DNA from: Desulfobacteraceae bacterium
Lineage (GTDB): Bacteria > Desulfobacterota > Desulfobacteria > Desulfobacterales > Desulfosarcinaceae
Direction of reading: 5' to 3'
Length of the DNA stretch: 64,000 nucleotides
Assembly: GCA_050288425.1 (NCBI GenBank)
Contig: JBNKDU010000124.1
Coordinates: 48,711 to 112,710 of the forward strand
A program made the translations under genes and the position numbers. Below, one piece after another: positions 16,475-39,723 of this stretch; the stretch's first letter is position 1; the number at the start of each line of letters is the position of its first letter. The notes under the pieces were generated by a model. The model did no database searches and was not told the origin of the DNA. It saw nothing but the letters and a program-made list of their open reading frames with translations.

Positions 16475-18175
16475 TTAGGGATATGTTTCGTTATTATGTC
16501 CCTCTCCGTGACAGAGCAGGGTGCAGTTGCCGGTGAAGCGGCCCTGGTCCACGAATGCGAGGGTGCCGCCGTTGGGCGCGACGATGGTGATGTCGAAATT
16601 GATCAGGTGGGTGTTGTTGACGGCGTTTCCCTGGGTGTTGCTGATGCCGTGGGGATCGTGGCAGGCCGAGCAGGGGGCGTTTTGTCCCACGATATGGAAG
16701 TTGTGCAGGCTGAAGCTGTCGTTGCCGAGAATGCTGGCGCGGCTGTGGCAGTTGTAGCACAGCGCATAGGCCGCCGCGCTTTCGGCCGTGTTATCGGCGG
16801 TCACGTAGTTGAGCTCCAGCAGGGGGGCGAAGTCGGATCCGTGGGGCCCCCGGGGACCGGCCGGATCGCTGTTGTTGTGGCAGTCTGTGCAGAAGATCAG
16901 GCTGGCGGTGGTCAAGGGAGGGATCAGGCTGGGCACGTCCGGGTTGACGCCCGGTGCGGCCACCGGATGGTAGGAAGGGTTGCCCGGATTGAATTCCAGA
17001 CGGGTGTTGAGCTGGAGGATCTGCCGGGTGATGTTCAGGACGGCGATGACATTGTTGTCCGCATGGCACTTGAAACAGATCTGGTAGAGGTCGGGCGCCG
17101 GGTCCACCTGGAGACCGGCCAGGTCGATGCCGGTCACCCCGGTGTTGCGCCCCGACACCAGGGGCGCGCCCGGCGACGGAACACCGTTGGCCTGGTGGGG
17201 GTTGTGGCAGTCGACGCACTCCACATGGTTGGAAATGGTGCCGACGGCGAAATTTTCGGCGGCATCGTGCACATCCACGGTGGCCTGAACCGGATGGCGG
17301 GAGGGGCGTGTCAGCAAGACCTCGATGTTGGTCTGGGCCACGTTTCCGTTGTGGCAGGCCAGGCAGGTATCCTCTTCGAAGCGCTGGTTGAGGATGCGCT
17401 GGGGTCTGGGCGCCGTATGGGGACGGTGGCAGGAGATACAGGCGTTCTCCGCCACGGTGGCCAGTTCGGAATTGGGCCATGGATCGACGCCCTGACCGTT
17501 CCACTGGGCGTCGGAGACGGCATGGGAGGCGGCGTTCCAGCCGATCAACTGATGGCAGGTGTTGCACAACCGGCCGAAGGTGTTGGTCATCACCAGGAAC
17601 TTGCCCAGGTCGTTGTTGTGCGGATTGTGGCAGGCGGTGCATTGCAATTGGCTGGTGTCGTCCACCTTGACCTGGGGGGGCAGCAGGGCCGGATCCACGA
17701 GTTCCCCTCGGGTTTGGGCCAATTGACTGTCGTAAATCAGGGAGATCGGGTGGTCGTCGGACAGATCGGTCCCCATCAAGGCCGGGCTGGTGCCGGGCAG
17801 CAGCCGTACACCGCCGGCGAAGGCGATCTCCTGTTCGCGGTCGAGTACGGCGCCCAGGGCGATGGTCCCGTCATGACAGCCGAGGCAAAGACGCGACGCT
17901 CCCGTGGGTTGGCCTACGGCCGCAACCAGGGTGGTGCTCTGGTAAGGGATGTAGTTGGTGGTCTGGTCTTCGCGGTTCCACAGGAAAGGTACATCGTCGC
18001 GGGCGTTGTGGGGGGTGTGGCAGAAGATGCAGATGCGCGATTCGTCCACCGCCCGAAAGGCTCCGGTGCCGCTGGTGGAAAGGTTGTGCGGGGTGGAGGC
18101 GATGTCGGCACCGGCCGTACCGGCGGTCAGCAGCGTGACCAGCATGATGATCCATGGGTTGCCGAGTTTCTTCAT
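16475..18175 (-). CDS. Secreted multiheme c-type cytochrome (11 CxxCH plus 1 Cx3CH)
   Basis: 566 aa with Sec signal MKKLGNPWIIMLVTLLTAGTAGA. Motifs: CIFCH, CLGCH, CTACH, CNTCH, CISCH, CLACH, CVDCH, CFKCH, CTDCH, CYNCH, CSACH, plus C-terminal CTLLCH. Many are CxxCHxPH pairs. The ATG overlaps the upstream NHL gene's stop (ATGA). Confidence 0.9.
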   Translation of the reverse strand: MKKLGNPWIIMLVTLLTAGTAGADIASTPHNLSTSGTGAFRAVDESRICIFCHTPHNARDDVPFLWNREDQTTNYIPYQSTTLVAAVGQPTGASRLCLGCHDGTIALGAVLDREQEIAFAGGVRLLPGTSPALMGTDLSDDHPISLIYDSQLAQTRGELVDPALLPPQVKVDDTSQLQCTACHNPHNNDLGKFLVMTNTFGRLCNTCHQLIGWNAASHAVSDAQWNGQGVDPWPNSELATVAENACISCHRPHTAPRPQRILNQRFEEDTCLACHNGNVAQTNIEVLLTRPSRHPVQATVDVHDAAENFAVGTISNHVECVDCHNPHQANGVPSPGAPLVSGRNTGVTGIDLAGLQVDPAPDLYQICFKCHADNNVIAVLNITRQILQLNTRLEFNPGNPSYHPVAAPGVNPDVPSLIPPLTTASLIFCTDCHNNSDPAGPRGPHGSDFAPLLELNYVTADNTAESAAAYALCYNCHSRASILGNDSFSLHNFHIVGQNAPCSACHDPHGISNTQGNAVNNTHLINFDITIVAPNGGTLAFVDQGRFTGNCTLLCHGEGHNNETYP

Positions 18176-19248
18176 GGCTGTAGATCCTGTGGGTTGAGCA
18201 GTTCAAATATTTGAATGCGTTTGTTGTAGGTATCCGCAACGAAGATGCGGTCATGGTCGTCGATGTGCAGTCCGGCCGGCAGCCAGAATTCGCCCGGCGC
18301 CTGGCCCGATCGTCCCAGGGCCATGAGCAGCCGGAAGCGTGCATCGAAAATCTGTATATTGTCGAAGTTGGCGTCGGCCACGTAAATACGGCCGGCGCTG
18401 TCGGCGGCCACCCCCCGGGGGCGTGAGAACCTGCCGCGGCCGTCCCCGATGCTCCCGAACCCGCCCAGCGGCCGGCCTTCCGCGGTAAAGGTCTGGACTC
18501 GGAAATTCATGGCGTCGGTGACATAAACAGTACCGTCGGCGCCGGCATACAGATGGGTGGGGAAATGCAGTTCTCCCCGTCCCGTTCCGGATCGGCCAAA
18601 GGTGCCGCGCAGCTTTCCGTCTTTCAGTCCGAAGCGCAGGATCTCGTTGCGGCGCGTGTCCACCACCAGCAGTTCCCCGCTGACGGGATTGACGGCCAGG
18701 CCCGTGGGCCGGGTCAATTGCGTCTTTCCCAGCTCGCCCACGGCGCGCCGGCCTGCCAGGTCATAGATCTTCACCACGGCTTGCTGGGAATCGGACACGT
18801 AGATCTTGCCGGTATGCGGCTCCACGGCCACGGCCACCGGCGAAAGCAATGGTTCTTCTTCCGTGGGAATCAGGCGATAGCGGCCGGCCGGCATGTCGAA
18901 CAGATGGATCTTGCGAAGATAACTGTCCACCACATAGATTCTGCCGTCCGGATCGGTGGTGACATCGTAGGGGGACACCAGCACGTCCTGCTGGCGGCCG
19001 GCCATATAGCGAAGGAAGCGGTGCATGAAGGAAGCTTGAATGCCAAGGTCTCCGGGACCGGTGATGCTCGCCAGGTAGCGGATGCGCGCCGGTGCCGACG
19101 GCGGCGGCCAGACTCGCTGCGGCTCCGGAGCCGGCGGCAGCATGCCGGGGTGCTGACAGGCGGTCACCAGTACGAGGATCGAGAGCGCCGTCGCCAGGCG
19201 CACCTGTGGGCCAATGGCTGATGATAGGCGTGTCCGCGAAATTGGCAT
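18172..19248 (-). CDS. NHL-repeat six-bladed beta-propeller lipoprotein
   Basis: 358 aa with a lipobox-like LVLVTAC. Six repeats of the type (R/K)IYV(A/V/S)D...N.RIQ.F, e.g. RIYVVDSYLRKIHLFD, TVYVTDAMNFRVQTFT, RIYVADANFDNIQIFD, RIFVADTYNKRIQIFE. Confidence 0.85.
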   Translation of the reverse strand: MPISRTRLSSAIGPQVRLATALSILVLVTACQHPGMLPPAPEPQRVWPPPSAPARIRYLASITGPGDLGIQASFMHRFLRYMAGRQQDVLVSPYDVTTDPDGRIYVVDSYLRKIHLFDMPAGRYRLIPTEEEPLLSPVAVAVEPHTGKIYVSDSQQAVVKIYDLAGRRAVGELGKTQLTRPTGLAVNPVSGELLVVDTRRNEILRFGLKDGKLRGTFGRSGTGRGELHFPTHLYAGADGTVYVTDAMNFRVQTFTAEGRPLGGFGSIGDGRGRFSRPRGVAADSAGRIYVADANFDNIQIFDARFRLLMALGRSGQAPGEFWLPAGLHIDDHDRIFVADTYNKRIQIFELLNPQDLQP

Positions 19249-19270
19249 GATAATAAGGGTCGATCTCCTT

Positions 19271-21325
19271 TTAAAACGGGATGCGGATCAATTCGACTTG
19301 CACGGTCTGGCGTGTCCGCCGGTCATCATTGGCCTCGTCATGCTCGTCAAGGTAGCTGTAGGTGATGCCGCCGGTCCAGATGCGGTACTTGAATTCGAGC
19401 TTGGCAAGGATGCCGGTATCCACCACTTCGCGTAAATCACCGCTGACGCTTTCCCAGAAACCTTCCAGGCTGAATTTGCTCCATGAGCGCAGCAGGTACT
19501 CGCCCCGCACCCGCAGACTGATCACCTGTTCGGACTGGTCCAGCTCCTTGAAATAGATGTCGGTGTAGCCGCCGGTGATGGAACCGAAGAGACGTCCGCC
19601 GGTATGTTGGCGCAAGGTCTGTTCGGCGCTCCATTGGGTAGTGGAAATCCCGCTGTCGCGCTCGCTGTCCTCCAGGGTCAGCCGGGTCTCGTACATCGGT
19701 TTGGTATAGCGCACCAGGGCCGTGTGGACCTGTTCGCCCGCCGGGCTGCTTGGATCGGGTCCGCTGGTGATGGATTGATCGGCGCGACGGTAGCGGTAGG
19801 AGAGGGTCAGGGCATCCCAGAGGAAAAACTCGAATCCGTAGCGTTGGCGTAGAATGGCATCGTCGAAGCTGGCGTCGGAGGTGAACTGATAGTCCACCAG
19901 TACGGTTTGCCCTTCGGCGATATTCCCCAGCACGGTACGGCTGATCCGGGTCTGATTGCCGATCTGCTCCAGGATGTAATCCGCGCCATTGACATAGACG
20001 ATGGTGGCGTTGCCGTTCGTAACCCGCACCGTGGCAGGATCCACATTGGGATTGTTCAGGAAGGTGACCGCGGATGTGCTCAGGGTCTGGGGTTCTGCGA
20101 TTACCTGGATCTGCAGTGCGTCCAGATTGCGGGTGGTGACGTCGTAGTTGGCGCCTGCGAACAGGTTCATGCGTCCCCACTCGATGGGTTGCCGAAAGGT
20201 GAAATCGAGCCGGCCGCGATAGATTTGCTCGTCGCCTCCGGTGAATTCATTGCCGGTGTAGCCGGCGCCGCCGGCGGTGGTCAGCCTGTCATTATACAAA
20301 TGAGTGACGCGGGCTTCCGCGTCCTGGGATTGAAATTCGGAAACGCCGGTTTCCGCGCGGCTGAAGCCCAGGTTGTAGTCGCTGCGCAGGTTGGTGCGGT
20401 GCTGCCAGTGCAGGTTTTCACGCAGCCGCAGGCTGTTGGTCTCCAAGGTTCCGAAATCGGAGCTCCGGTAATTCCAGAAGGAGTTGAGTTTCACCCGCTG
20501 GTCACGGGCCAGCATCCATTCGTTGTGCAGGTCGGAATTCAAGGTGTCGACGGTATTGGTAAATCCCTGGAGGGTGCGTTCGTTTTCGCTGTAGGTGGCG
20601 CTCAGGCGGGTCTTGCTGCGGATGGCGTTGTGGTGCGTCACCAGGTTGTATTGGTCCTGGGTCTCCTGGGAGTCGAAAAATCCGGATTGGTCCACGTCCC
20701 GGTGAACGTAACCCAGGGTGGTGGGCAGCAGGCGGTTCTTGAGGTAGATGTCGGCGCCGTATGTGTCGATCTCGGATTCGGCGCTCTGGGCAAAGGCGCT
20801 GCGAAGGGTGGTCTCCCGGCGCTGGCCGAAGAGGCGCAGGGAAACCGGTTTGGGGTCCAACAGGCGCGCCTCGGCAAAATAGGACGCCAGGGTATCGCTG
20901 GAATCGTCATTTTCTCCGGAGTCGCGGTCCTGGGTGGATTGCCGGAGCTCCGGCTCCACCCGCAATTTCAATTTCATCAGGGCCGGATGGTAGATCCATC
21001 CGTTGGTTTCCAGGACGAGCCGTTCGCGCCACTCCTGGGTGGTGTCCCGGCTGTCGCCCCGGCCTCCGCGACGTTCCTCCTCTTCGAAATGATAGGCGAG
21101 ACCCAGTCCCACCTTGGGACGTTGGAAGTAGATCCGGCCGGTTTCGCCGTCACTCTCCTTGGCCGCGGGCACGGCCCGCAGGGAAAGGGTCGCTGGAACT
21201 TCCAGCGGAATGACGGTATTTCCATCCGATTCTGGTTGCTCGGCGGCCATCGTCCGATCGTGAACGGCGAGGCTGAGGAGTAACGCGGCTGCGGCGATCC
21301 ATGTACGATATTGGCAAGCTTTCAT
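19271..21325 (-). CDS. Putative outer-membrane beta-barrel (porin-like) protein
   Basis: 684 aa. Signal peptide MKACQYRTWIAAAALLLSLAVHDRTMAAEQ. No haem or Cys motifs. Composition is rich in Y/R/T/N/D/G with alternating hydrophobic residues. The C-terminal ...VQVELIRIPF ends in Phe, like a BAM beta-signal. Size is comparable to MtrB-type barrels. No family recognised by eye. Confidence 0.6.
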   Translation of the reverse strand: MKACQYRTWIAAAALLLSLAVHDRTMAAEQPESDGNTVIPLEVPATLSLRAVPAAKESDGETGRIYFQRPKVGLGLAYHFEEEERRGGRGDSRDTTQEWRERLVLETNGWIYHPALMKLKLRVEPELRQSTQDRDSGENDDSSDTLASYFAEARLLDPKPVSLRLFGQRRETTLRSAFAQSAESEIDTYGADIYLKNRLLPTTLGYVHRDVDQSGFFDSQETQDQYNLVTHHNAIRSKTRLSATYSENERTLQGFTNTVDTLNSDLHNEWMLARDQRVKLNSFWNYRSSDFGTLETNSLRLRENLHWQHRTNLRSDYNLGFSRAETGVSEFQSQDAEARVTHLYNDRLTTAGGAGYTGNEFTGGDEQIYRGRLDFTFRQPIEWGRMNLFAGANYDVTTRNLDALQIQVIAEPQTLSTSAVTFLNNPNVDPATVRVTNGNATIVYVNGADYILEQIGNQTRISRTVLGNIAEGQTVLVDYQFTSDASFDDAILRQRYGFEFFLWDALTLSYRYRRADQSITSGPDPSSPAGEQVHTALVRYTKPMYETRLTLEDSERDSGISTTQWSAEQTLRQHTGGRLFGSITGGYTDIYFKELDQSEQVISLRVRGEYLLRSWSKFSLEGFWESVSGDLREVVDTGILAKLEFKYRIWTGGITYSYLDEHDEANDDRRTRQTVQVELIRIPF

Positions 21326-21388
21326 GCGGAACCCGATTCTTCCGTTTTTGAGGGCAAATGGCTGTAGTCGCTATCCCGATTCATGAGG

Positions 21389-22495
21389 TTACGGCCGGTT
21401 TTCCGGTGAACCGACATATTCGCCAAACCCGTATACATTGATGCGATTGGGGCCGAAGCCGGAGGCCACGTAGACCACATATTCCAGCCGAAATCCCGGA
21501 TCGACGAAGTTGGCGAAATATTGGGCGTTGGCATAATCGATATGTACGCCTGCAGGCAGGTAGAGATTGCCCGCCCCGGTGCCGCCGCCGCCGAAATAGA
21601 GCAGCATGCCGCCGGAGTCGGCATCGAAGATCTGAACATTTTCAAATGCTGCGTCGGCCACGTACAAATGGCCGCTGTGGTCCACGGCCAATCCTTTGGG
21701 ACGGGCGAACGCGCCCAGGTTGTCCCCCGGAAAACCATAGGCCTTGACAAACCGGCCTTCCCCATCGAATTGCTGCACACGGAAATTGAAGGAGTCGGTG
21801 ACGAAGAGATGGCCACGGGGATCGACGGTTAGATGGGACGGCATGCGAAAGGCCCCCGGATCGGCACCGGTGCGGCCGATGCGCTGGAGCACCCTGCCGC
21901 TTGCGCGATCGAGCACCACCACCTGGTTGCGTTTGAGATCGCAGACATAGACGCGGTTTTCATATACCGCCACGTCCACCGGCCTTTCGAAGACCTCTGC
22001 ATTGCCGTATGTCCGCAAATAGCGGTTACGGTCATCGAAGACCACCACCTGTTTGCGCCCCATGTCGGCGATGTACTTGATGTCTTCGGGCGTGACCCAG
22101 ATACCCGACGGGTTCTGAAGGGCGCCCATGCCGGAGTCGGCCAGGGAGTCGATGCGTCGTTTGGCCAGATCGATGATGCGCAGCTTCCGGGGGTTGCGGT
22201 CCAACACGTAGATCTTGCCCGGAACCGAGGCCACATCATAGGGGCGCCCGATGAGTTCGCCGGTCGGCGCCTCTCCCAGCAGAAACCGGTCCCATTTGCT
22301 GCGGCGGCGACCCAAGTCCGCTTCCGCGCTGATGGTGTGCAGGTATTGCAGCCGTGGCCGTTCCGGCGGGGGTGGGTAGAAAACGATGGGTCGCTCCGCC
22401 TGGCGGGACGGGACCGATGCGCAGCCCCCGAGAATGAGCAGGGCCAGTGCGGACGCGGCCCATGCCCGCCACGCAAGCCGGGTGCGAATTTCCAT
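21389..22495 (-). CDS. NHL-repeat six-bladed beta-propeller lipoprotein
   Basis: I prefer the ATG at 22495 (MEIRTRLAWRAWAASALALLILGGCAS, lipobox LGGC), preceded by AGGAGA. The track ORF starts at 22540. NHL blades include KIYVLDRNPRKLRIID, RVYVCDLKRNQVVVLD, HLFVTDSFNFRVQQFD, HLYVADAAFENVQIFD. Confidence 0.85.
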   Translation of the reverse strand: MEIRTRLAWRAWAASALALLILGGCASVPSRQAERPIVFYPPPPERPRLQYLHTISAEADLGRRRSKWDRFLLGEAPTGELIGRPYDVASVPGKIYVLDRNPRKLRIIDLAKRRIDSLADSGMGALQNPSGIWVTPEDIKYIADMGRKQVVVFDDRNRYLRTYGNAEVFERPVDVAVYENRVYVCDLKRNQVVVLDRASGRVLQRIGRTGADPGAFRMPSHLTVDPRGHLFVTDSFNFRVQQFDGEGRFVKAYGFPGDNLGAFARPKGLAVDHSGHLYVADAAFENVQIFDADSGGMLLYFGGGGTGAGNLYLPAGVHIDYANAQYFANFVDPGFRLEYVVYVASGFGPNRINVYGFGEYVGSPENRP

Positions 22496-22553
22496 CTTCT
22501 CCTGATGAGATCGTAGGAATGTGCTTTGCGCCATGACCATCCTGTTCTGTCGT

Positions 22554-23189
22554 CTATAGATTGTGGCAGGTCAAACAAAGGGACGAAGCCGTATTGCTCT
22601 TGCGCAAGAGAGAGACCTGACCGAACTTGTTGTGCACATCGTGACACGACGCACACTCCATGCGACTTCCGAAAAGCATGTCGCTGAGAATGGTTCCCGA
22701 GCTGCCGTCCAGACCCGAAAGCGTGGTGGCCGGATCGCGCAGGCTGCCGTCGGCCAGGGCCAGGTCGGTATTGTAGACGAAAGAGATGGGGTGATCGTTG
22801 CTCAGGTCGGTGCCTAGATTGTTGCGTCCGCTGATCAACTGGCTGCCCGGATTGCCGCCGAATGCATCGATGGCGATGGTGCCGTCATGACACGACAGGC
22901 ACAGTTTGGATGGTCCGATGGGCTGATTCAGCGACCCGGCGGTGGTGCCCGCATCGAGAGTGTCGCTTCCGTAAAGGTTATAGACGGCCGTGGAAACCGC
23001 ATGGTTCCACATGGGGACGTTTTGGACGTCCGTGGATGTGTTGTGGGGCGCATGGCACGGCAGGCAAATTTCTCCCTGGGAGAATCCCAGCCCGCTGAAA
23101 TCGTGGGCGCTGCCCGCGATTTCGGCCATGGCAGTTGCGTAAAGGGCCAATACCAGCATGGTCGTGAAGATGAATAGATTCTTTAACAT
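22554..23189 (-). CDS. Secreted tetrahaem c-type cytochrome
   Basis: ATG at 23189 (MLKNLFIFTTMLVLALYATAMA signal). Motifs CLPCH, CLSCH, CASCH, CLTCH. The sequence is colinear with the N-terminal third of the 566-aa cytochrome (SAHDF..CLPCHAPHN..CLSCHDGTIAID..GTDLSNDHPISFVYN). Confidence 0.85.
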   Translation of the reverse strand: MLKNLFIFTTMLVLALYATAMAEIAGSAHDFSGLGFSQGEICLPCHAPHNTSTDVQNVPMWNHAVSTAVYNLYGSDTLDAGTTAGSLNQPIGPSKLCLSCHDGTIAIDAFGGNPGSQLISGRNNLGTDLSNDHPISFVYNTDLALADGSLRDPATTLSGLDGSSGTILSDMLFGSRMECASCHDVHNKFGQVSLLRKSNTASSLCLTCHNL

Positions 23190-31079: not shown

Positions 31080-33362
31080 TCAATTCACCTTATGTTGTCC
31101 AGGGGGCCCTGGACGGCGCCACAGTTCGCGTTTTTCAGTGTCGTGAAAATAGAGATACCGAAACAGACTATCGATACCATGGCAATCCATACAGAGGATT
31201 TCACTGCTCGAGTTGCGCAGGAAACGAAATCGCACTTGCACCGGGTAAGGATCGGCGGGGTGCGGCGCGGCAGCGGGCAAATGTCCGTTGTGGCATGTTG
31301 GACAACCGATATCGCCAACCCGCGTGCGATGTCCGAGATCGTCGAAAACGGGCGTGGACTTTTCCCTGCCCCGGGTGGGGTCTGCATGGCCGGCGACCAA
31401 TTTGCCGGCTGGGTGGCTGGCGATGGCCGGAATTCTTTTCTCGGCTGGTTTGCCCCTGGCGTGGCAGCTGGTGCACAATCCGCCGATGGGATTTACGTTT
31501 TCGGATAGCGGTCCATACTCGCGGGCCCACAGCCGCATGGAGTTGGGGCTGTTGTGGGGCAGATGGCAGGCGCCGCAAAGACCGGAGGATTGAACGGTCT
31601 GGCCCGCCAGGTTAGTCGCTTCCGGCGCTGTGTTTCTCAGGTCGTGGGAGGATCCCGCCATGTTGGCCTGGGCCATGTGGCAACTTTTGCACAGATCCGG
31701 TTCCGGCGCGTTGGCGATGCGCAGAAAGCTGTCGGCGGCCGTGCCCTCGACATTTGCGGAGTATGAATCGGCGTCGGGAGAGGACCGCCGGCTCCAGATA
31801 TGTGGTTCGTGACAGGTCAGGCAGACCATATTCCGGTCGGGATTCCGGTTCCCCTTGTCATCGTACCGCGGCAGGGTCGGGGCGATGTCCCCGCCACCCG
31901 GCCGCAGGGCGGCCAGGGAAACATGGATCGGGTGGTCGTTGCCGCCCACCAGTTTGTTTTTGGCGGATCCCCGGGCGTTATGGCATGAGGTACAAACCTG
32001 GGAGGCCCAATCCTCATCGGCTGTCAGCGGTCTGGCCCACAGGCGTCTCTGCGCGGCGTGATGCGGCACGTGGCAGGTGCTGCAGGGGCCTGCATTCTCC
32101 GGGGTCATCGATAGCGCGTTCTTCTCCAGGGGGGCCGTGATCCCAAGATTGTGGTCGGAGGTGAGCAGAGGTCGTTTGTCCGAGTGGCAGGTGACGCAGA
32201 GCGCGGAAGTGCCGTCGTTGGCTATTCTGAGAAAACTGTTGCCTGCGTCCCCATCCACCTTTACGTCGCCTCCATTGGCGGTGGCGTTCGGGTCCCAGCG
32301 ATGCACGTTATGGCAGGAGAAGCATTGCACGCTTCCGGTGGGTGTTTTGACGCCATTGGCGGAAAACAACGGCAGGTGGACGCCGCCGGCATATCGATCC
32401 TTCGGTCTTACGTTCACCGGATGGTTGTATTGTCCGAGACGTTTGGCTTGCAGTTCGCCATTCTCGCCATGACAGGTGAGGCACATCTGCTTGGCCGGCG
32501 GGTCGCCCGTCAAGGGACGGGCCCAGATTTTATTGCCGGCGGCATGATGGGGTACATGGCAGACGCCGCAGGGGCCTGATTTCACCGGCGTCTGGTGGCG
32601 GATGTTTTTGAGGTTGGGGAACTGCGCGCGCATGTCGTGTCTGGAATTCAGGAGACCGGCCTGCTCCTGGTGGCAGGTCAGACACAACGCGGATTTGGCT
32701 GTGGACGCTGTCAGAGCGCGCTTTCCGTGTGCCTGGTGGCAGGATTGACAGATCATCTCTCCTGCCGGACTGAATTTCGCACCCAGCTCGGCCGCTTTAA
32801 TTCTCGATTGCGCCTTGACGACTCTCAGCACCGGATGGCTGGCGCCCTCCTTTCGGCCGGTCCGGTTTCCGTGACAGGCGACGCACAGCTGGGATTTATC
32901 GTTGTCCATGCGCATGAACGCCGTACTGCCCACCTGGGCACTGTCTTTGAAATCGTGCAGCGTGTGGCAAGTGCCGCAGTAGATCTCGTTGTCGCTGTCC
33001 AGCCGCAGGATATCCGGGAGCTTCAGATTTTCCGGCACCTTCTTGAGCAGATGATGGGGATTGTCGGCCTCCACGGTGAGCCGGCTGTCGACCACATAGC
33101 CGTCATGACAGGTGATGCACATGGATTCGGTGGAGACCAGGCCGGTGGAACCGGCCACCACGATGGGCGATGCGGTTTCGGGCACCAGGGTCGCCTGGTG
33201 GGTCTGAACGGCGTCGAACCACGACACATGGCATAGCAGGCACTCTTTGTCGGCACGTCGGGTCAGGGCCTGGGCCGGCGCCGCCGTGAGCAGCCAGCCG
33301 CAGAGCAGCAAAAGGGACCATGCCCATGAAAGCGTTTTTTTATGGACGTGAATGGGGATCAT
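31080..33362 (-). CDS. Giant modular multiheme c-type cytochrome (18 CxxCH), paralogue of 23313-26057
   Basis: 760 aa; signal LSWAWSLLLLCGWLLTAAPAQA; GAAGGAAG SD. 18 CxxCH: the same 6-haem N-terminal region plus three 4-haem modules. C-terminus CMDCHGIDSLFRYLYFHD matches the paralogue. Confidence 0.9.
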   Translation of the reverse strand: MIPIHVHKKTLSWAWSLLLLCGWLLTAAPAQALTRRADKECLLCHVSWFDAVQTHQATLVPETASPIVVAGSTGLVSTESMCITCHDGYVVDSRLTVEADNPHHLLKKVPENLKLPDILRLDSDNEIYCGTCHTLHDFKDSAQVGSTAFMRMDNDKSQLCVACHGNRTGRKEGASHPVLRVVKAQSRIKAAELGAKFSPAGEMICQSCHQAHGKRALTASTAKSALCLTCHQEQAGLLNSRHDMRAQFPNLKNIRHQTPVKSGPCGVCHVPHHAAGNKIWARPLTGDPPAKQMCLTCHGENGELQAKRLGQYNHPVNVRPKDRYAGGVHLPLFSANGVKTPTGSVQCFSCHNVHRWDPNATANGGDVKVDGDAGNSFLRIANDGTSALCVTCHSDKRPLLTSDHNLGITAPLEKNALSMTPENAGPCSTCHVPHHAAQRRLWARPLTADEDWASQVCTSCHNARGSAKNKLVGGNDHPIHVSLAALRPGGGDIAPTLPRYDDKGNRNPDRNMVCLTCHEPHIWSRRSSPDADSYSANVEGTAADSFLRIANAPEPDLCKSCHMAQANMAGSSHDLRNTAPEATNLAGQTVQSSGLCGACHLPHNSPNSMRLWAREYGPLSENVNPIGGLCTSCHARGKPAEKRIPAIASHPAGKLVAGHADPTRGREKSTPVFDDLGHRTRVGDIGCPTCHNGHLPAAAPHPADPYPVQVRFRFLRNSSSEILCMDCHGIDSLFRYLYFHDTEKRELWRRPGPPGQHKVN

Positions 33363-33368: not shown

Positions 33369-34316
33369 TCACTGCAACGCATACACACTGACCATGTTCA
33401 GCGTCGATTGGACGACATAGAGCCGCTTATCCGAGTCGATGGCAATTCCCAGCGGTGTGACCAGCCGCAGGTGGCCGGGGCCGTCCGGCGAAGCCAATAT
33501 GCCACGGAACCGTCCCGTGGGTTCGAACACCTGAATCACTCCGGTGTAGCTGTCGGATATGTAGACGCCGCCGTCGCCGTCCAGGGCGATCCCTTTGGGG
33601 CGATAGAGCTGGCCGGGCAGCACGCCCAGTTGCGAGATTTGCCGCGGGTTCCCGCCGCCGGCATCGAACACCTGGACACGTCCGTTCAAAATATCGACGA
33701 CATAGAGATCGTCGCCGTCACGGGCGGCCATCATGCCGGGGAACCGCAGTTGTCCTTTCTGGTTTCCCATGCGGCCCCATCGGGCCGTCAGACTGCCGTC
33801 GGCCGCAAATACCATCACCTGGTGGTTGCGGGCGTCGCTGACGTAGATCCGCTTACCGCCCTGCCGGGCTTCCACCTCCACCGGCCGCGATTGCCAGGGT
33901 TTCAGGTCGATCTGGCGCTGGAACTTGCCGGTGCGGCCGAAAATCTGGATGCGCTGGTTCCCGGTATCCGCCACGTAGATCCGGCCCGCTTCGTCGATAT
34001 CGATGCCCACGGGGCTGTGGAATTGGCCCGCCTCCCGGCCCTGGCGGCCGATGGCGCCGATGTAGCGCCATTTGGCGTCGAACATTTTGACCTGGTGGTT
34101 GGCGCCGTCCAGCACATAGAGCCGGCTGTCCGGACCCACGGCGACTTCCGTGGGTTGATTGAAATCCTGTCGGATATCGGCGAGATGTTTCACCTGGATG
34201 GGTCGAACGGTTTCGCCGACGGCCGGCTGGGCAGTGGCGATGCCCGCACCGCCGATGGTCAGGCAAAGCCAGACCCACAAACCCGAGGTGATCTTGGCAA
34301 GACGGTTTTCGATCAT
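33369..34316 (-). CDS. NHL-repeat six-bladed beta-propeller protein (secreted)
   Basis: 315 aa. The ATG overlaps the upstream gene's stop (ATGA). Signal SGLWVWLCLTIGGAGIATA. Blades include RLYVLDGANHQVKMFD, RIYVADTGNQRIQIFG, RIYVSDARNHQVMVFA, DLYVVDILNGRVQVFD, GVYISDSYTGVIQVFE, RLYVVQSTLNMVSVY. Confidence 0.85.
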   Translation of the reverse strand: MIENRLAKITSGLWVWLCLTIGGAGIATAQPAVGETVRPIQVKHLADIRQDFNQPTEVAVGPDSRLYVLDGANHQVKMFDAKWRYIGAIGRQGREAGQFHSPVGIDIDEAGRIYVADTGNQRIQIFGRTGKFQRQIDLKPWQSRPVEVEARQGGKRIYVSDARNHQVMVFAADGSLTARWGRMGNQKGQLRFPGMMAARDGDDLYVVDILNGRVQVFDAGGGNPRQISQLGVLPGQLYRPKGIALDGDGGVYISDSYTGVIQVFEPTGRFRGILASPDGPGHLRLVTPLGIAIDSDKRLYVVQSTLNMVSVYALQ

Positions 34317-35284
34317 CGATTCTTGTCCGAAGTCGCCCGCGGCGGCATCCCGGTTTTCTGGCCGGCCGCCGACTCGATTTGCTCTTTCAGCCTGGAGATG
34401 ATCCGGTTCACACTGTCCCGGTTCGCCGGGTCCGTATCGAACAGGCCCGGCTCGAGCGCCTGTTTCACCTTCTCGCGGATCTGGTTGTTGCGGATCCCGA
34501 AGGCCATGGAAATGATGATGGAGTTTTGTTCCTCTTCTCTCCGGGAGGCCAGGTGGGAGACAAACACCTTGGGAGCGGTGAGAAACATGTCCACGAACAT
34601 ATGCGATAAATACTCGGCGGGAAAACCATAGGCGTTGGTGGAATAATCGAACAATGCCTGGAGGATGGTTTCGTCCTGCCGGTAGGCGAACAGGTCTGCC
34701 AGGTAGGAGAGAAAGTTCATGATATCGATGATCGCCTGGGAGGCCTCCACCGCCTGGGTCGGGTCCGCATTGCCGTCGTATTGCGGCAGAACCCGCAGCA
34801 GGAAGTCGCGGTTTTGTTCGTACCGGAACCCCCGTCTGGCCGCCATGAAGGCCAGCAGCGCCTTCTCCCGGTTCTCCCAGCCGCTTTGTTGGTTCAGGTT
34901 GTCGATCAGTCGATTGGCCACCGGCAGGTCGTGCTCGTCCAGCAGGCGCAAGGCGTCGCAGATGGTTTCCGTGCGGGTAAAGTAGTCGAATCGCGTGCGG
35001 GCGTGGATGGCGTCGCGGTCTTTTAGGATCTTCTGCAGCACATCGATGCGGTTCTTGGTGTCGAAACGCATGCCGATGTTGTCCAGGGCGATGATATCGG
35101 TGCGGTCCAGGGGGTAGCCGATCTTGATCAGGTTTCGAATCAAATTGCGGGTGTTGTAGTTCTGGGCCTGCGCTTCAGGGGGTACGATGCCGGACAGGGC
35201 GATCGTGAACAGCACCACCGCGCAGGCGATGGCGGCGGGCAGAAGCATGAGCCTCCGGTTCCGGACGTCGTGGATCCGGCCCAT
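34313..35284 (-). CDS. Hypothetical exported or membrane-anchored protein, no recognisable family
   Basis: ATG at 35284, preceded by GAGGGA; the track start at 35308 is TTG. N-terminal hydrophobic segment LMLLPAAIACAVVLFTIALSG, then about 300 aa of apparently helical, haem-motif-free sequence. Translationally coupled to the downstream NHL gene. Confidence 0.55.
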   Translation of the reverse strand: MGRIHDVRNRRLMLLPAAIACAVVLFTIALSGIVPPEAQAQNYNTRNLIRNLIKIGYPLDRTDIIALDNIGMRFDTKNRIDVLQKILKDRDAIHARTRFDYFTRTETICDALRLLDEHDLPVANRLIDNLNQQSGWENREKALLAFMAARRGFRYEQNRDFLLRVLPQYDGNADPTQAVEASQAIIDIMNFLSYLADLFAYRQDETILQALFDYSTNAYGFPAEYLSHMFVDMFLTAPKVFVSHLASRREEEQNSIIISMAFGIRNNQIREKVKQALEPGLFDTDPANRDSVNRIISRLKEQIESAAGQKTGMPPRATSDKNR

Positions 35285-35304
35285 GGTTTCCCTCGTATCG
35301 GAAT

Positions 35305-36726
35305 TCAATCGATACCCCCCGCCGATGGCCGCTCCCTATATTGCGGTTCGTGATACCCGCGCTCGCTCAGGAACCCCTTGGCCTTGCGTCCGAGGATCTT
35401 CCTGACTTCGGGGATGAATTCCAGGTAGTAACGATCGGCCACCTCCTGCAGCCCCTTGCTCCAGGCGTAGGCGGGGCCCATCATGGCGGCGCCGTGCCGG
35501 GCCCGCCGTCCCTCGTGGTATACCAGCTTCACATAGATTCTGTCCAATGGCTCGTCATGGAAACCGGCGGTGGACTTGCCCTGTTTGATCAGGTCGTCAC
35601 GAATCCGGGTCGCCGGCTCGGCAATGGTTTGGTTGTAGCGTTCGACGAAGTCGTCGAATTGGGTGTAGAACTGCTTGATGAAATCGTCGGCGTGGCATTG
35701 CCGACAGACATGTTGCATGGTTTTCCGCCGCGACTCCCAGTTCTCCTGTTTGAAGGCGATGGGTTTGCGCAGGTTCCACGACAATCGCAGACCGACATCG
35801 TGGTTGACACCCAGATCGATTCTCTTGTCGGCTTGCGGCGGGGGCAGCAGTGCTTTATACACCTCGTTGTCCGTTCCGGACAATACCGTCTTCAATGCTT
35901 CCTCCAACCGACGGTCGGCATCCTTGACGTCCCGTTGGGGCGGCACATCGCCCATGTGACAGCCGGCGCAGGTCGGACCGTGGAAGTAATCCACTCCGGC
36001 CCGCCAGCGGCGGCGGTCCATGTTCAGGCGATCCTGGTAGGCGGCATAGGTCATGCCGTGCTTGCTGCCCCGGTAGATCTCGATGTGCGGGTTTTCCGGT
36101 CCGTTGTGGCAGCGGCCGCAGGTATCCGGCCTGCGGGACTGCTCCGTGGAGAAGAGATGGCGGGGATGGCATGCGGTGCAGGCCCCCTTGCTGCCGTCCA
36201 GATTGATCCTGCCGATGCCCGTGTTGGGCCAAGTGTCGGGGTCCAGCCGTCCGCTGCCGTCCTTTTGCAATTTGACCACCGTGCCGTGGCAGGCTTCGCA
36301 GCCTTTGTACTGGTCTTCGATGCCCCACATGGCCTGTCCCAGAAAATTGTCGATGCTTTCGAGGGTCTGAATGGCATCGGCGTGATGGGAGTTGGTGTAT
36401 TGACCGTATTCCTTCTCATGGCACTGGCCGCAGTCCTTGGGGGTGGGTACGATGGCGATGCGCTCCTTGTGTTCGTATCCGTCGGCGTCCTCGGCGCCGG
36501 CCTTGTGGCAGTCGTAGCAATTGACACCGGCCTGACCCATGGCGCTCTGGTTCCACTGGTTGTAAATTCCCGGCGTGACTTCGCGGTGACATACCACGCA
36601 GACATCTCCCCTGGAATCGCCGTACTTGTCCGGGGGGACATAATAGGCTTCCGCGATACCGGTACAGAACAGGCACACGGTCAAAACGAGAAGTAGTGCT
36701 TTCCAGCAAGATTCTGATTGCGGCAT
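35305..36726 (-). CDS. Octahaem c-type cytochrome of the hydroxylamine-oxidoreductase (HAO) family
   Basis: ATG at 36726, preceded by AAGGAG; signal CWKALLLVLTVCLFCTGIAEA. 8 CxxCH. Stretches colinear with HAO as I remember the Nitrosomonas sequence: CTACHPRHLFSTEQSRRPDTCGRCHNGPENPHIEIYRGSKHG, GPTCAGCHMG, CRQCHADDFIKQFY. Confidence 0.8.
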   Translation of the reverse strand: MPQSESCWKALLLVLTVCLFCTGIAEAYYVPPDKYGDSRGDVCVVCHREVTPGIYNQWNQSAMGQAGVNCYDCHKAGAEDADGYEHKERIAIVPTPKDCGQCHEKEYGQYTNSHHADAIQTLESIDNFLGQAMWGIEDQYKGCEACHGTVVKLQKDGSGRLDPDTWPNTGIGRINLDGSKGACTACHPRHLFSTEQSRRPDTCGRCHNGPENPHIEIYRGSKHGMTYAAYQDRLNMDRRRWRAGVDYFHGPTCAGCHMGDVPPQRDVKDADRRLEEALKTVLSGTDNEVYKALLPPPQADKRIDLGVNHDVGLRLSWNLRKPIAFKQENWESRRKTMQHVCRQCHADDFIKQFYTQFDDFVERYNQTIAEPATRIRDDLIKQGKSTAGFHDEPLDRIYVKLVYHEGRRARHGAAMMGPAYAWSKGLQEVADRYYLEFIPEVRKILGRKAKGFLSERGYHEPQYRERPSAGGID

Positions 36727-36803
36727 GACGGCTCCTTTCCCCAACCCCTCGGCAAGCGCTCTGTCCATGGCCCGTTTGCCATCCTTCTTATGCGGCGTTC
36801 GGG

Positions 36804-38102
36804 TCAGGACACCCTTGGCAGCTCGTTAATGGAAACATCCACGGCCCCGACCGATTCCCGGGGAACGGAAGGTTCTTTTTTTTCTTCAGGCCCGGCTCCC
36901 GCAACCCGCAGTTCTCCGGTTTCGATGGGAATGGCGATTTTCAAGGCCAGGGTGTAAATCAACAGGCCGATGCCCAGTACGCCGATGGAAATCATGATCT
37001 CCGGCGTTTTCGGTGAGTATTCCCAGATTTCGCCCATGGGGGAAGGCACGAACCCGGGCACGATGAAGCCCAGGCCTTTCTCCAGCCAGACGCCGACGAT
37101 GATCAGCACGCAGGCCAGGTTCAGGGTGATGAAGTTCTTCTTGGTCCAGGGGATCAGGAAGAGAAGGAAGGCCGTGATATTGAACGTGATGGCCGTCCAG
37201 ATCCAGGGTACCAGGCCGCTATGGCCGTGCAATCCGACGAAGAGATATATGATGGGCGCCTTGTGCCAGCTGTCGGTGTAGAGTTCCTTGAAGACTTCGG
37301 CTCCCAGAAACAGCAGGTTGATGCCCATGGCGATACAGACCATCTCGGCGATCTTGAACAGCGCCGCGTCCTTGACTTTGAACCTGGTGAATCTGCGGAT
37401 CACCTGAAAGATAATGATGCAAAGGGACGGGCCGGAACAGAAGGCCGAAGCCAGAAACCGCGGCGCCAGGATGGCCGTGTTCCAGAACGGACGCGCCCCC
37501 AATCCATTATACAGGTAGGCCGTGACGGTATGGATGCCCACCGCCCAGGGAATGGAGAGCAGCACCAAAGGCATGTAGACCCATTTATTGGCCTCCTTCT
37601 GCAGGTAGATCATGGTCAACAGGTAGAGAGAGACGGCCATGTTGATGAACAGGTACCCGTTCAATACCAGGATGTCCCAGTCCAGCATGGAGGCCGGGAA
37701 ATTGGGCCTGCCGACGAATGGGAGCAGGTGCCATATTCGTTCCGGATGTCCCAGGTCCAGGGTCACGAAGAGCATGGCCATGAGCAGGGCGCTGACGGCC
37801 AGGATTTCTCCCAGTACGGTGATCTCCTTAATGGGCCCGAAATCATAGACATAGGCCGGGATGACCAGCAATACGGCGGCGGCGGCGACTCCGACCAGAT
37901 AGGTGAAGTTGCCGATATAGAATCCCCAGGAGACCTGGTCCACCATGCCGGTGACCGCCAGTCCGGATGCAAATTGATAGGAGTAGCCCCGCAGGCCGAT
38001 GGCGATCATGCCCAGGATAACGATGATCCAGGCATAGTAGATGGGCGGTCCCTCGATCCATCGGCTGCTGACCTGGCGGATAAAATGGATGGCTTTTTGC
38101 AT
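36804..38102 (-). CDS. NrfD/PsrC-family integral-membrane quinone-interacting subunit
   Basis: ATG at 38102; the track start at 38123 is TTG. About 430 aa and highly hydrophobic with many TM helices. N-terminus ...PPIYYAWIIVILGMIAIGLRGYSYQFASGLAVTGMVDQVSWGFYIGNFTYLVG is typical of NrfD-like proteins. Follows a NrfC-like FeS gene. Confidence 0.8.
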   Translation of the reverse strand: MQKAIHFIRQVSSRWIEGPPIYYAWIIVILGMIAIGLRGYSYQFASGLAVTGMVDQVSWGFYIGNFTYLVGVAAAAVLLVIPAYVYDFGPIKEITVLGEILAVSALLMAMLFVTLDLGHPERIWHLLPFVGRPNFPASMLDWDILVLNGYLFINMAVSLYLLTMIYLQKEANKWVYMPLVLLSIPWAVGIHTVTAYLYNGLGARPFWNTAILAPRFLASAFCSGPSLCIIIFQVIRRFTRFKVKDAALFKIAEMVCIAMGINLLFLGAEVFKELYTDSWHKAPIIYLFVGLHGHSGLVPWIWTAITFNITAFLLFLIPWTKKNFITLNLACVLIIVGVWLEKGLGFIVPGFVPSPMGEIWEYSPKTPEIMISIGVLGIGLLIYTLALKIAIPIETGELRVAGAGPEEKKEPSVPRESVGAVDVSINELPRVS

Positions 38103-38139
38103 GAATGCGATTCCTTCTTCCAACCCGACGATGGCCGGA

Positions 38140-39057
38140 CTAAAGCGAAAAGAAATAGAAGAACTTGGGCTGCGTATTCAAATCTTCTTTCAGCTTGAAT
38201 ACCCGCTGGTGTTCCAGCACCTTGCTGATCTCGCTGTCGGGATCGAGAAGGTTGCCGAATTTGCGCGCGCCCACCGGGCAGGCTTCCACACATGCCGGGT
38301 AGCGTCCCTTGCGGGTGCGCTGCACACAGAACGTGCATTTCTCCACGACGCCCCGGTGGCGGGGGCGGTTGCCCAGGTAGTGTACGTTGGTGTTCAACTC
38401 CTCTCGCGGAATGTACGGATCGGCAAAATTGAACCGCCTGGCCCAGTAGGGACAGGCCGCCATGCAGTAGCGGCAGCCGATACACCAGTTATAATCGATG
38501 ACGACGATCCCGTCCTCATCCTTCCAAGTCGCCTGGGTGGGGCAGACCTTCACGCATGGCGGGTTTTCGCATTGCTGGCATTGTACCGGCATCGTGTAGG
38601 TTCCTTCCGTGGGTACCATGCCGGCCTCGTAGTAATGTTCGGACTCTTCGAAATTCATGGTGCCTTTTTCGAACCGCAACACGCGGATCCATTGAATTTG
38701 CGGTTTGCGGCTCTGGTTGTTCTCCTTTACGCAGGCATAGACGCAGCGCCGGCAACCGATACAGCGAGAAAGATCCAGGGCATAGCCGAAGAGCACATTG
38801 GGATACGGTGGTTCGCTACCCAGGATAAAATCACGGCCGTATTTTTCTTTGTACTGCTTTTGCAGCCGTGATTTTACGCGCTGGAGCTCTTCCGGACTCA
38901 TCTCTTCGAAATGGCTTTGGATATACTCATCCAGCTTTTCCCCGGGCACCGCGCCACCGAGGCCGCAACCTCCGAGGGCCAGCGACGCCGAAGCGACTCC
39001 CGCGGTCTGCAGGAAAGTTCTGCGACTCACGTGTTTGGCAAATTTGGGTTTCATCAT
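38140..39057 (-). CDS. Tat-exported 4x[4Fe-4S] ferredoxin-type subunit (NrfC/PsrB/HybA/QrcC-like)
   Basis: Twin-arginine signal MMKPKFAKHVSRRTFLQTAGVASASLALGG. Cys clusters CIGCRRCVYAC, CQQCENPPCVKVCP, CIGCRYCMAACP, CTFC...CVEACP. Confidence 0.85.
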   Translation of the reverse strand: MMKPKFAKHVSRRTFLQTAGVASASLALGGCGLGGAVPGEKLDEYIQSHFEEMSPEELQRVKSRLQKQYKEKYGRDFILGSEPPYPNVLFGYALDLSRCIGCRRCVYACVKENNQSRKPQIQWIRVLRFEKGTMNFEESEHYYEAGMVPTEGTYTMPVQCQQCENPPCVKVCPTQATWKDEDGIVVIDYNWCIGCRYCMAACPYWARRFNFADPYIPREELNTNVHYLGNRPRHRGVVEKCTFCVQRTRKGRYPACVEACPVGARKFGNLLDPDSEISKVLEHQRVFKLKEDLNTQPKFFYFFSL

Positions 39058-39102
39058 GCGTTCCTGTGATCGGTCTGGCAATTTATACATTGTGGGCCGA
39101 AA

Positions 39103-39723
39103 TCAATGGCCGGGAGAAGCTTCCTGCGCCGATTCCCAGCGGCCGTAGCCGGGAGGTTTCGGTGGTTCCTGCGCCATGAGCTTCCGGAATCTGGGGCTGT
39201 GCGGATCATGGCAGTGGGCGCAGAGCAGATAGAGTTTGTCACCGTTCCATTGCCCCACGCGACGGCCGTGAATGCCCATCTTCCAGTCGTTGTAAATCTG
39301 GCCGTGGCATTGGCCGCAAAGGCGGTAGGATTGTTCGAAGGGAATCTTTTCCCCGGTGATCAGTTTCAGGGAGTTGCGTTCCTCGAGGTCGTGGCAATTG
39401 AGGCACCATTGCCAGTCGGCGTGTTTGAGCTCGATGTCCTGATGCATCTGCACCAGCAGGCGCGGCGTGGGATCGGGCGCATGGTAGAACCGGCCGAGAA
39501 AGGACGGTCCGAGGCCCTCGCGGTCATCCGGGCCGCCGGCATCCCGGCGGTGGCACGCCTGGCAAGGAAACAACCCCTGGTAGACCAGGGGCGGCGGGAC
39601 CGGATAGAGGGTTTCATCCGCCGGGGAAGGCTGGCCGGCAAGGATTTTTCCAGGCGCCAGCGTCAACGCCGCCATCAGCAGGATGAGCAGGGCGGCTGAT
39701 TTTCGAGGTTTGGCGATGGACAT
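39103..39723 (-). CDS. Secreted tetrahaem c-type cytochrome (first gene of the cluster)
   Basis: ATG at 39723, preceded by a perfect AAGGAGGA. Signal MSIAKPRKSAALLILLMAALTLAPG. Motifs CQACH, CLNCH, CGQCH, CAHCH. The upstream 105 codons of the track ORF look non-coding. Confidence 0.85.
   Translation of the reverse strand: MSIAKPRKSAALLILLMAALTLAPGKILAGQPSPADETLYPVPPPLVYQGLFPCQACHRRDAGGPDDREGLGPSFLGRFYHAPDPTPRLLVQMHQDIELKHADWQWCLNCHDLEERNSLKLITGEKIPFEQSYRLCGQCHGQIYNDWKMGIHGRRVGQWNGDKLYLLCAHCHDPHSPRFRKLMAQEPPKPPGYGRWESAQEASPGH

Follow-up and report, generated by a model that had tools for sequence, protein, structure and literature searches.

The gene cluster of the filament-forming tetrahaem cytochrome OmcE has as its signature OmcE itself, two propeller lipoproteins, a large outer-membrane (OM) barrel and multihaem cytochromes. 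OmcE homologues in such clusters span five phyla, OmcE-similar tetrahaems are widespread and need not all form filaments, and the initiation and anchoring of filaments are unknown, with no OmcE-like protein in OmcE operons standing out as the filament tip (bioRxiv 10.1101/2025.10.22.684050). The Uet system of 'Ca. Tenderia electrophaga' is composed of the tetrahaem UetA, the peptidyl-prolyl isomerase (PPIase) UetB, the barrel UetC, the c7 trihaems UetDEG, the cupredoxin UetF, the NHL proteins UetH/I and the undecahaem UetJ, and on biocathodes the expression of its genes changes with the electrode potential (bioRxiv 10.1101/2022.05.06.490989). The Uet cluster is also present in some Gallionella (PMC10734462). 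The sulfate reducer Desulfovibrio ferrophilus IS5 carries multihaem cytochromes, one of them with 12 haems, beside NHL genes (DFE_0448-0451 and DFE_0461-0465; PMC5815863; PMC9769857), and its clusters of NHL and multihaem genes are up-regulated under electron-donor starvation, alongside electron uptake from electrodes (PMC5815863). Here we analyse a set of 18 genes found in a 64,000-nucleotide stretch of DNA from a Desulfobacteraceae bacterium, hereafter the window. We consider it probable that this set is an extracellular cytochrome system of the OmcE/Uet superfamily, which a single operon connects to the menaquinone of a sulfate reducer of Desulfobacterales type. The uptake of electrons by sulfate reducers from minerals, steel and methane-oxidising partners is still debated, and the anchoring and charging of nanowires is unresolved. 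The locus provides a concrete list of parts for these questions: a single putative transcription unit holds a homologue of a nanowire subunit, a barrel, propeller lipoproteins, candidate periplasm-spanning cytochromes and two predicted quinone modules.

All 18 open reading frames (ORFs) are confirmed as consecutive on the minus strand, from position 39723 down to 16475, and the widest intergenic gap is 125 nt, as in the preliminary description of this DNA. Nine of the products are c-type cytochromes. A regular-expression count gives 84 CxxCH and 2 Cx3CH motifs, exactly the totals first reported, distributed as 4 in cyt4b, 8 in cyt8b, 18 in cyt18, 7 in cyt7, 7+1 in cyt8a, 3 in cyt3, 22 in cyt22, 4 in cyt4a and 11+1 in cyt12 (the second figure is Cx3CH). 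A six-frame count finds 85 CxxCH in the minus frames of the cluster against 1 in the other 40.7 kb of the window, an enrichment far beyond chance. Pfam detects NHL in four proteins as well as Ni_hydr_CYTB, NrfD and Fer4_11 with a TAT signal, in agreement with the four NHL propellers, the cytochrome b and the Tat-FeS/NrfD pair that had been read from the letters; the 684-aa protein and the 331-aa protein, the latter already described as an orphan, receive no family in the Pfam scan. Four gene junctions are ATGA overlaps (at 18172, 27015, 28904 and 34313), and a fifth at 35305, which the preliminary description had flagged as a possible one, turned out to be TTGA.

The boundaries of the cluster are marked by two hairpins. 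The upstream one, after sat, is terminator-like on the minus strand (40073..40105; a T-run and a 14-bp stem in which 9 pairs are GC), and the downstream one lies between the 3' end of the cluster and qmoC (16342..16377; 15-bp stem with A- and T-runs). The terminator scan scored the downstream hairpin on the minus strand only; this hairpin may act in both directions because it has an A-run on its 5' side and a T-run on its 3' side. The scan finds no hairpin as strong as these two inside the cluster. With gaps of at most 125 nt, four ATGA overlaps and strong terminators at both ends only, it is plausible that the cluster forms a single transcription unit. Long plus-strand ORFs at 16496-18214, 27126-28958, 33342-34631 and 39906-41402 (429-610 aa) contain no CxxCH and were rejected as antisense artefacts that overlap the true minus-strand genes and stem from the high G+C content (~60%).

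The six genes at the 3' end of the cluster fit the published description of the omcE cluster. Gene cyt4a (22554..23189, minus strand) codes for a 211-aa protein with a Sec signal and 4 CxxCH that aligns end-to-end with the subunits of two solved extracellular OmcE filaments, those of Desulfuromonas soudanensis (PDB 9YUQ, E 2.8e-24, residues 3-210 on 2-217) and of Geobacter sulfurreducens (PDB 7TFS, E 7.5e-23, residues 9-210 on 11-231). In both cyt4a and the N-terminal domain of cyt12, 4/4 CxxCH and four further His align with OmcE, the additional His falling in the columns HD(F/L)S, PH, DHP and (V/P)H. We applied here the eight-His criterion of bioRxiv 10.1101/2025.10.22.684050, in which the four further His are the haem-coordinating ones. 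Judged by its sequence, cyt4a is a full-length OmcE homologue and a candidate filament subunit. This homology had escaped the preliminary description, which presented the set as uncharacterised and unlike known systems. That view finds no support: the set carries the published omcE signature, and the combination of NHL proteins, barrel, tetrahaem and undecahaem is that of Uet.

Two NHL propeller genes flank the barrel gene on the minus strand, NHL2 on its upstream side (21389..22540; NHL E 2e-19) and NHL1 on its downstream side (18172..19248; NHL E 6e-30). Their products have the lipoboxes LGGC and VTAC, respectively, and the Cys that follows the hydrophobic region is kept in the homologues of both, features that make them probable lipoproteins. 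The absence of a lipoprotein, stated earlier for a decahaem, thus holds for the cytochromes and not for these two propellers. The gene in between (19271..21325, minus strand) encodes a haem-free 684-aa protein with an N-terminal signal and the carboxyl terminus IRIPF; its homologues end in F or W. An AlphaFold2 (AF2) model built from a 10-sequence alignment (pLDDT 74.5) displays ~31 long antiparallel strands over residues 73-683. All top Foldseek matches of this model are large OM barrels (Cir, LptD, FimD and MtrB), and MtrB (6R2Q_B) has the highest TM of them, 0.41. The protein is thus predicted to fold as a large OM β-barrel of ~30 strands, the role first assigned to it, and the failure to form such a barrel, which the preliminary description had named as a refutation, did not occur. 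A word-indexed search returned 10 relatives of the barrel versus 2219 representatives in a full profile search; the family is therefore large but fast-diverging, and the idea of a rare family was discarded. Cluster look-up of the distant relatives yields 'hypothetical protein' names only.

The last gene of the cluster, cyt12 (16475..18175, minus strand), overlaps NHL1 by 4 nt (ATGA), indicating translational coupling, and the NHL1-cyt12 pair is kept at every related locus examined. Its product is a 566-aa dodecahaem cytochrome with 11 CxxCH and 1 Cx3CH. Residues 8-209 match OmcE (7TFS, E 4e-28) and this domain shares 38.6% identity with cyt4a, while the carboxyl-terminal part gives weak matches to the DmsE/MtrA family and to NrfB-like proteins. 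By homology, cyt12 is an OmcE-like N-terminal tetrahaem domain fused to an 8-haem C-terminal part. Its relatives are numerous (6907 matches, of which the best 120 share 56-82% identity along their whole length) and include a member in the cultured Desulfosediminicola flagellatus and close homologues in 'Ca. Mariimomonas ferrooxydans'. Papers on 'Ca. Mariimomonas ferrooxydans' discuss Cyc2 only, despite the presence of these homologues. The gene content represents an already known type of route for electrons into or out of the cell, and NHL-associated cytochromes are a recurrent theme of the literature, so that the system is not without precedent. New are the combination in one operon, the location in a sat/apr/qmo locus and the recognition of an OmcE-like domain in a widespread dodecahaem.

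The core order tetrahaem-NHL-barrel-NHL-dodecahaem is also seen in metagenome-assembled genomes (MAGs) of Desulfobacteraceae, Nitrospirota and Desulfatiglandales and in several metagenome loci. Related loci, identified below by L numbers, fall into three sub-types when G. sulfurreducens OmcE is the seed of a metagenome scan. The Geobacter-type order is cyt9-cyt8-NHL-OmcE-NHL-barrel, with a barrel of ~750 aa ending in RKIF (L013, L023, L024, L028, L033, L035 and L036). The Uet-like order is cyt4-NHL-OmcE-like-SurA-type PPIase-barrel-c7-c7-x-c7-NHL-cyt12-like (L068 and L077), and the window-type order is OmcE-NHL2-barrel-NHL1-cyt12 (L049-51). L068:7662-20807 and L077:7449-19757 match the published Uet gene order, with a tetrahaem, a SurA-like PPIase, a barrel of ~740-800 aa, c7 trihaems, an NHL protein and a cyt12-like cytochrome. 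Since these two loci were retrieved with OmcE, their organisation suggests homology of UetA to OmcE and a single superfamily for Uet and omcE. The OmcE and NHL proteins are homologous across the sub-types, and the dodecahaem is homologous between the Uet-like and window types; the Uet-like loci carry homologues of NHL1 (37-38% identity) and of cyt12 (27-40%; 44% in L072). This sequence comparison was made on the architecture-matched metagenome loci, in place of the Tenderia proteins ALP54622-ALP54630. These relationships suggest that the Geobacter omcE, Tenderia Uet and widespread window-type clusters are sub-types of one superfamily. At L057, a 2317-aa ORF with 43 CxxCH (10831 onward, plus strand) comes directly after the gene of an OmcE-like tetrahaem and an ORF of 945 aa that contains NHL.

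Features common to the window and the omcE cluster of G. sulfurreducens and D. soudanensis are a tetrahaem of the OmcE family in which every haem motif and ligand His is kept, a pair of propeller lipoproteins, multihaem companion cytochromes and a large haem-free OM barrel with Phe as its last residue. The window differs by having no glycosylation gene block, by its fusion to two quinone modules and by its sulfate-reducer host. Its companions are a dodecahaem with a fused OmcE-like domain and giants of 18 and 22 haems, as opposed to the 8-9-haem proteins of the Geobacter type. With Uet it shares the tetrahaem, the large barrel, the NHL proteins and a terminal 'doubled CXXCH' cytochrome with 11-12 motifs, placed directly after an NHL gene. 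Unlike in Uet, the 18 genes of the window include no PPIase (Rotamase), no c7-only trihaem and no cupredoxin, and Uet is found in electroautotrophs and iron oxidisers with an aerobic or microaerobic life, whereas the window host is a sulfate reducer. The D. ferrophilus clusters, which are likened to the window by their description, have no apparent porin or barrel gene and no reported quinone modules. No mention of the osc (OmcS companion) cluster is made in PMC10954620.

Directly upstream of the OmcE module is a set of genes, named here unit 2, that comprises cyt8a, cytochrome b, cyt3, NHL3 and cyt22, all on the minus strand. The first of them, cyt8a (28904..29986), is a periplasmic 7+1-haem cytochrome with a signal peptide and a predicted C-terminal transmembrane (TM) helix (hydrophobic segment 309-327). 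In L074 and L080, too, a homologue of cyt8a stands before the cytochrome b gene. The cytochrome b (27897..28907) is a predicted four-helix dihaem protein of the FdnI/HydC type that scores 34.9 bits against Ni_hydr_CYTB (cut-off 30.1) and whose 4 TM segments carry the expected His pattern (His70, His126, His244 and His259); its identity is 80% with the L008 homologue and 45% with the ones of L074/L080. It is followed by the trihaem cyt3 (27015..27890; 3 CxxCH), putatively anchored in the membrane by an N-terminal segment (residues 12-30). A four-TM cytochrome b together with a membrane-anchored multihaem c gives this module a predicted architecture like that of Geobacter CbcBA. The NHL3 gene (26068..27018; NHL E 8e-25) overlaps cyt3 by ATGA and encodes a predicted soluble periplasmic propeller with a Sec signal and no lipobox. 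Next comes cyt22 (23313..26057), a 914-aa protein with 22 CxxCH whose position is occupied by 18-24-haem homologues in L002, L003, L006, L008, L009, L074 and L080.

Unit 2 recurs in L008 (55-80% identity), L074, L080, L002, L003 and L009, and D. flagellatus has part of it. The order cytb-cyt3-NHL-giant cytochrome is conserved in L008, L074, L080 and L011, and in L008, L074 and L080 the genes cyt8a-cytb-cyt3-NHL-giant cytochrome are found directly upstream of OmcE-like/cyt12-like genes. Between units 1 and 2 of the window lies cyt7 (30031..30954, minus strand), a heptahaem cytochrome c with 7 CxxCH and a signal-like hydrophobic segment, with homologues in L006 and L049-51. At L009, the genes that come after the cluster (13910-21731) code for a SurA-like PPIase, a TPR protein and the ResB/CcsA proteins of system II cytochrome c maturation.

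Unit 1, at the 5' end of the cluster and also on the minus strand, is made of a tetrahaem, a DsrO-like FeS protein, a DsrP-like NrfD protein, an HAO-family octahaem, the orphan, NHL4 and cyt18. The first gene, cyt4b (39103..39723), encodes a 206-aa tetrahaem c (4 CxxCH) with an N-terminal membrane anchor or signal, the hydrophobic segment coming after Met106 of the long ORF; it is 64% identical to its homologue in L007, likewise placed before FeS and NrfD genes. The Tat-exported 4Fe-4S protein (38140..39090; Fer4_11 and TAT_signal) is DsrO/NrfC-like, with a borderline NCBIfam score of 199.8 bits for DsrO (cut-off 200) and 158 for QrcC. The integral membrane protein that follows (36804..38123; NrfD E 8e-38, ~10 hydrophobic segments) exceeds the cut-off of the NCBIfam DsrP equivalog (402.5 bits vs 350) and is a predicted quinone-interacting subunit of the NrfD family. 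Both subunits are thus shared with DsrMKJOP, which together with NrfBCD-type complexes is among the closest known systems for this module. The window has a tetrahaem instead of the trihaem DsrJ and the additional octahaem, and none of its 18 proteins gives a DsrM- or DsrK-like (heterodisulfide-reductase-type) match in Pfam or NCBIfam. The octahaem cyt8b (35305..36768; 8 CxxCH) belongs to the HAO/OCC family (Multi-haem_cyto PF13447, E 4e-20), with PDB matches to 4QO5 (E 9e-40), 6H5L (E 7e-21) and HAO structures (~1e-13; NeHAO ~7e-14). Its position is filled likewise in L010 and L011.

The orphan (34313..35308) is a 331-aa, putatively secreted or anchored, all-alpha helical-repeat protein with 16 helices in its AF2 model (pLDDT 83). 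It has no match in Pfam or NCBIfam, its 108 homologues are all unnamed, and its fold finds nothing in the PDB beyond generic helical repeats (best E 0.013, TM <0.4). Its gene always precedes an NHL gene and a large cytochrome gene in L007, L010 and L011. NHL4 (33369..34316; NHL E 9e-31) is a predicted soluble periplasmic six-bladed propeller with a Sec signal and no lipobox, and the 760-aa cyt18 (31080..33362) carries 18 CxxCH. All-against-all comparison identifies NHL3 and NHL4 as paralogues (40% identity), and equally cyt18 and cyt22 (35.5% over the full length). Both giant cytochromes have Sec signals, no lipobox and ~42 residues per haem, which makes them candidate periplasm-spanning wires. 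Unit 1 recurs in L010, in L011 and in a 'Ca. Desulfatibia' MAG (L007), where the octahaem is missing and a shorter 5-haem cytochrome replaces cyt18. In L011 it adjoins cytb, cyt3, NHL and 932-aa cytochrome genes in an order different from that of the window, an adjacency that argues for a functional linkage of both kinds of module. Genes for haem biosynthesis (URO-D, HemN and ferrochelatase) come after the cluster at L010 (14256-18257).

The cytochrome operon sits inside the core locus of sulfate activation and APS reduction. Gene sat (40134-41405, minus strand) is directly upstream on the same strand, and aprB, aprA and qmoABC (8680-16305, plus strand) converge on the 3' end of the cluster. 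The products of sat, aprB, aprA and qmoC score above the cut-offs of NCBIfam equivalog models; the two genes taken for qmoA and qmoB have HdrA-type matches below cut-off only and owe these names to their position before qmoC. At 90% identity, AprA clusters with proteins of Desulfobacterales and Desulfobacteraceae MAGs, which narrows the host down to a Desulfobacterales-like organism. These flanking genes and the clustering of AprA identify the host, as far as its genes tell, as a sulfate-reducer-type organism. The general reading of the preliminary description, a trans-envelope electron-transfer system of a sulfate reducer built from quinone modules, long cytochromes and an OM barrel, holds, and we regard such a system as real.

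We privilege the following route for the electrons. The tetrahaem cyt4a would be secreted as an extracellular element that probably polymerises, and the ~30-strand barrel would serve as its passage through, or anchor in, the outer membrane, with the NHL1 and NHL2 lipoproteins flanking and stabilising the barrel complex. Cytochrome cyt12 would pass through the barrel and connect the haems outside the cell with the periplasm; being coupled to NHL1 and combining an OmcE-like domain with eight haems, it is the best candidate for passing the barrel and contacting OmcE. In the periplasm, cyt22 and cyt18, each paired with a soluble NHL propeller, would form the bridge to the inner membrane. Two modules could exchange electrons with menaquinone there, one made of cyt8a, the dihaem cytochrome b and the anchored cyt3, the other of the tetrahaem and the DsrO-like FeS and DsrP-like NrfD proteins with the HAO-family octahaem; in both, redox subunits would face the periplasm and membrane subunits would interact with the quinone. 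Electrons from a mineral, a metal or a partner cell would then reach menaquinol and, from it, QmoABC/AprAB.

Several findings weigh against this assignment. The hidden Markov model (HMM) of the window barrel gives E values of 2-40 for the 744-769-aa barrels of L013, L023, L024, L032, L033, L035 and L036, no match at all for the L028 barrel, and E values of 1.3 and 22 for the Uet-like barrels, and hhalign of window-type against Geobacter-type barrels returns a probability of 0.75%. The gene order OmcE-NHL-barrel-NHL-cyt12 is not the cyt9-cyt8-NHL-OmcE-NHL-barrel of Geobacter, and the companion cytochromes differ in size, with a weak and repetitive similarity of 20-28% between the window and Geobacter types. 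G. sulfurreducens can produce current and reduce Fe(III) oxide without OmcE (PMC13194489). The cultured D. flagellatus, which has the barrel-NHL-dodecahaem core, lacks an adjacent OmcE-like gene, so the outer module can exist without a separate filament subunit. Conserved placement of the system beside apr/qmo had to be rejected, being absent in the 74%-identical relative L008; in the window this placement is suggestive, not diagnostic. Unit 1 of L007 and L010 has no barrel within 10 kb. Finally, cyt8b, as a member of the HAO/OCC family, could be an enzyme and not just a carrier of electrons. Since the OmcE and NHL proteins are homologous across sub-types, the dodecahaem between the Uet-like and window types, and the barrels not detectably so, the window is best filed, on sequence, as a distinct variant in the OmcE/Uet superfamily and not as a Geobacter-type cluster in the strict sense.

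Sequence alone cannot fix the direction of electron flow. Uptake is most likely the physiological direction in our analysis because the cluster lies between sat and aprBA-qmoABC and because of the precedents of D. ferrophilus and Tenderia, in which the electrode-linked expression of NHL clusters outside Desulfuromonadia goes with uptake. The opposite direction, which we hold to be somewhat unlikely yet a serious rival, is that electrons exit towards electrodes, a partner or minerals with Fe(III)/Mn(IV), perhaps with oxidation of sulfide or sulfur through reversed Sat/Apr/Qmo. Multihaem chains are reversible, OmcE and omcE clusters have been described in metal reducers, D. ferrophilus also reduces Fe(III) oxide (PMC9769857), and in Desulfurivibrio a DSR pathway that runs in reverse is coupled to the reduction of iron oxide with Geobacter-type cytochromes (PMC12545173). 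The link of NHL genes to the sulfate-reducing partners of anaerobic methanotrophic archaea, mentioned in the preliminary description, is supported indirectly: homologues of the D. ferrophilus cytochromes occur there (PMC5815863), while the principal comparative study of these partners (PMC10553843) describes OetABI/OmcKL without NHL proteins or propellers.

The MtrCAB, Pcc/Ext and OetABI systems (PMC10553843) share with the window the logic of a periplasmic multihaem, an OM barrel and an extracellular cytochrome, and it is conceivable, if unlikely, that the window encodes a conduit of that kind and no nanowire. The barrel would then sheathe cyt12 as MtrB sheathes MtrA, cyt4a would be a monomeric or oligomeric cytochrome of the surface or periplasm, and the NHL lipoproteins would replace the lipoprotein decahaem as surface or periplasmic clamps. 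This explanation draws on the MtrB hit as the best of the structural matches, on the weak matches of the cyt12 carboxyl-terminal part to the DmsE/MtrA family and to NrfB-like proteins, on the D. flagellatus arrangement and on the caution in the OmcE preprint that such tetrahaems need not all build filaments. It has to face the retention in cyt4a of 8/8 haem-ligating His of filament-forming OmcE, a gene context by which the authors of that preprint define nanowire-capable homologues, and a DmsE-family score of 49.9 against a cut-off of 192.2. MtrB-type barrels have 26 strands versus ~30 in the window, and the window has NHL lipoproteins and no lipobox in any cytochrome, unlike MtrCAB and Pcc/Ext with their lipoprotein cytochrome. 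Across the cluster, the DmsE/MtrA model TIGR03508 reaches at most 58 bits (cut-off 192) and the OmcA/MtrC model TIGR03507 at most 24 (cut-off 209). Membership in MtrCAB, Pcc/Ext, Hmc and Qrc was rejected with all scores below cut-offs, in line with the difference from MtrCAB and Pcc/Ext noted at the outset.

Within the preferred reading, an OmcE/Uet-superfamily system connected to menaquinone, the cyt12 fusion could supply the missing connection across the outer membrane. We put forward tentatively, and with more doubt than confidence, that cyt12 is the 'base' subunit of OmcE-type nanowires. Its N-terminal domain would dock the first OmcE by the His-haem contact that joins the subunits of the filament, and its eight other haems would thread the barrel, clamped by NHL1/NHL2; with the NHL-bound 18- and 22-haem cytochromes and both quinone modules, this would give a continuous haem path from the filament to menaquinone and on to QmoABC/AprAB. 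If so, sulfate reduction would run on extracellular electrons.

A chance-adjacent mosaic of respiratory modules, with unit 1 acting, apart from the outer-membrane module, as a quinol-dependent periplasmic reductase of a soluble N- or S-oxyanion, is very unlikely: the enzyme family of cyt8b, the service of NrfCD-type modules to periplasmic reductases such as NrfA and MccA, the barrel-less unit 1 of L007 and L010 and the absence of unit-1 genes around unit 2 within the examined L002 and L009 loci (the L008 contig ends at cytb) would fit it, but unit 1 is always continued by orphan-NHL-large cytochrome, the same pairing of NHL and giant cytochrome as in unit 2, both kinds of module are adjacent again in L011 in another order, L007 drops the octahaem and keeps the rest of unit 1, and the window combines start/stop overlaps with the lack of an internal terminator.

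Other genes of the window lie upstream of sat, on the plus strand. A URO-D-like gene is found at 44805-45860. A gene for an ABC substrate-binding-like protein (48555-49751) precedes one for a 1037-aa hybrid sensor kinase (49840-52953) with dCache, HAMP, PAS, HisKA/HATPase and two receiver domains; the kinase gene is ~10 kb upstream of the cluster, with no link to it established. The next gene (53006-54676) encodes a pyridine nucleotide-disulfide oxidoreductase with a C-terminal rhodanese, similar to CoA-disulfide reductase, whose function may be sulfur-related.

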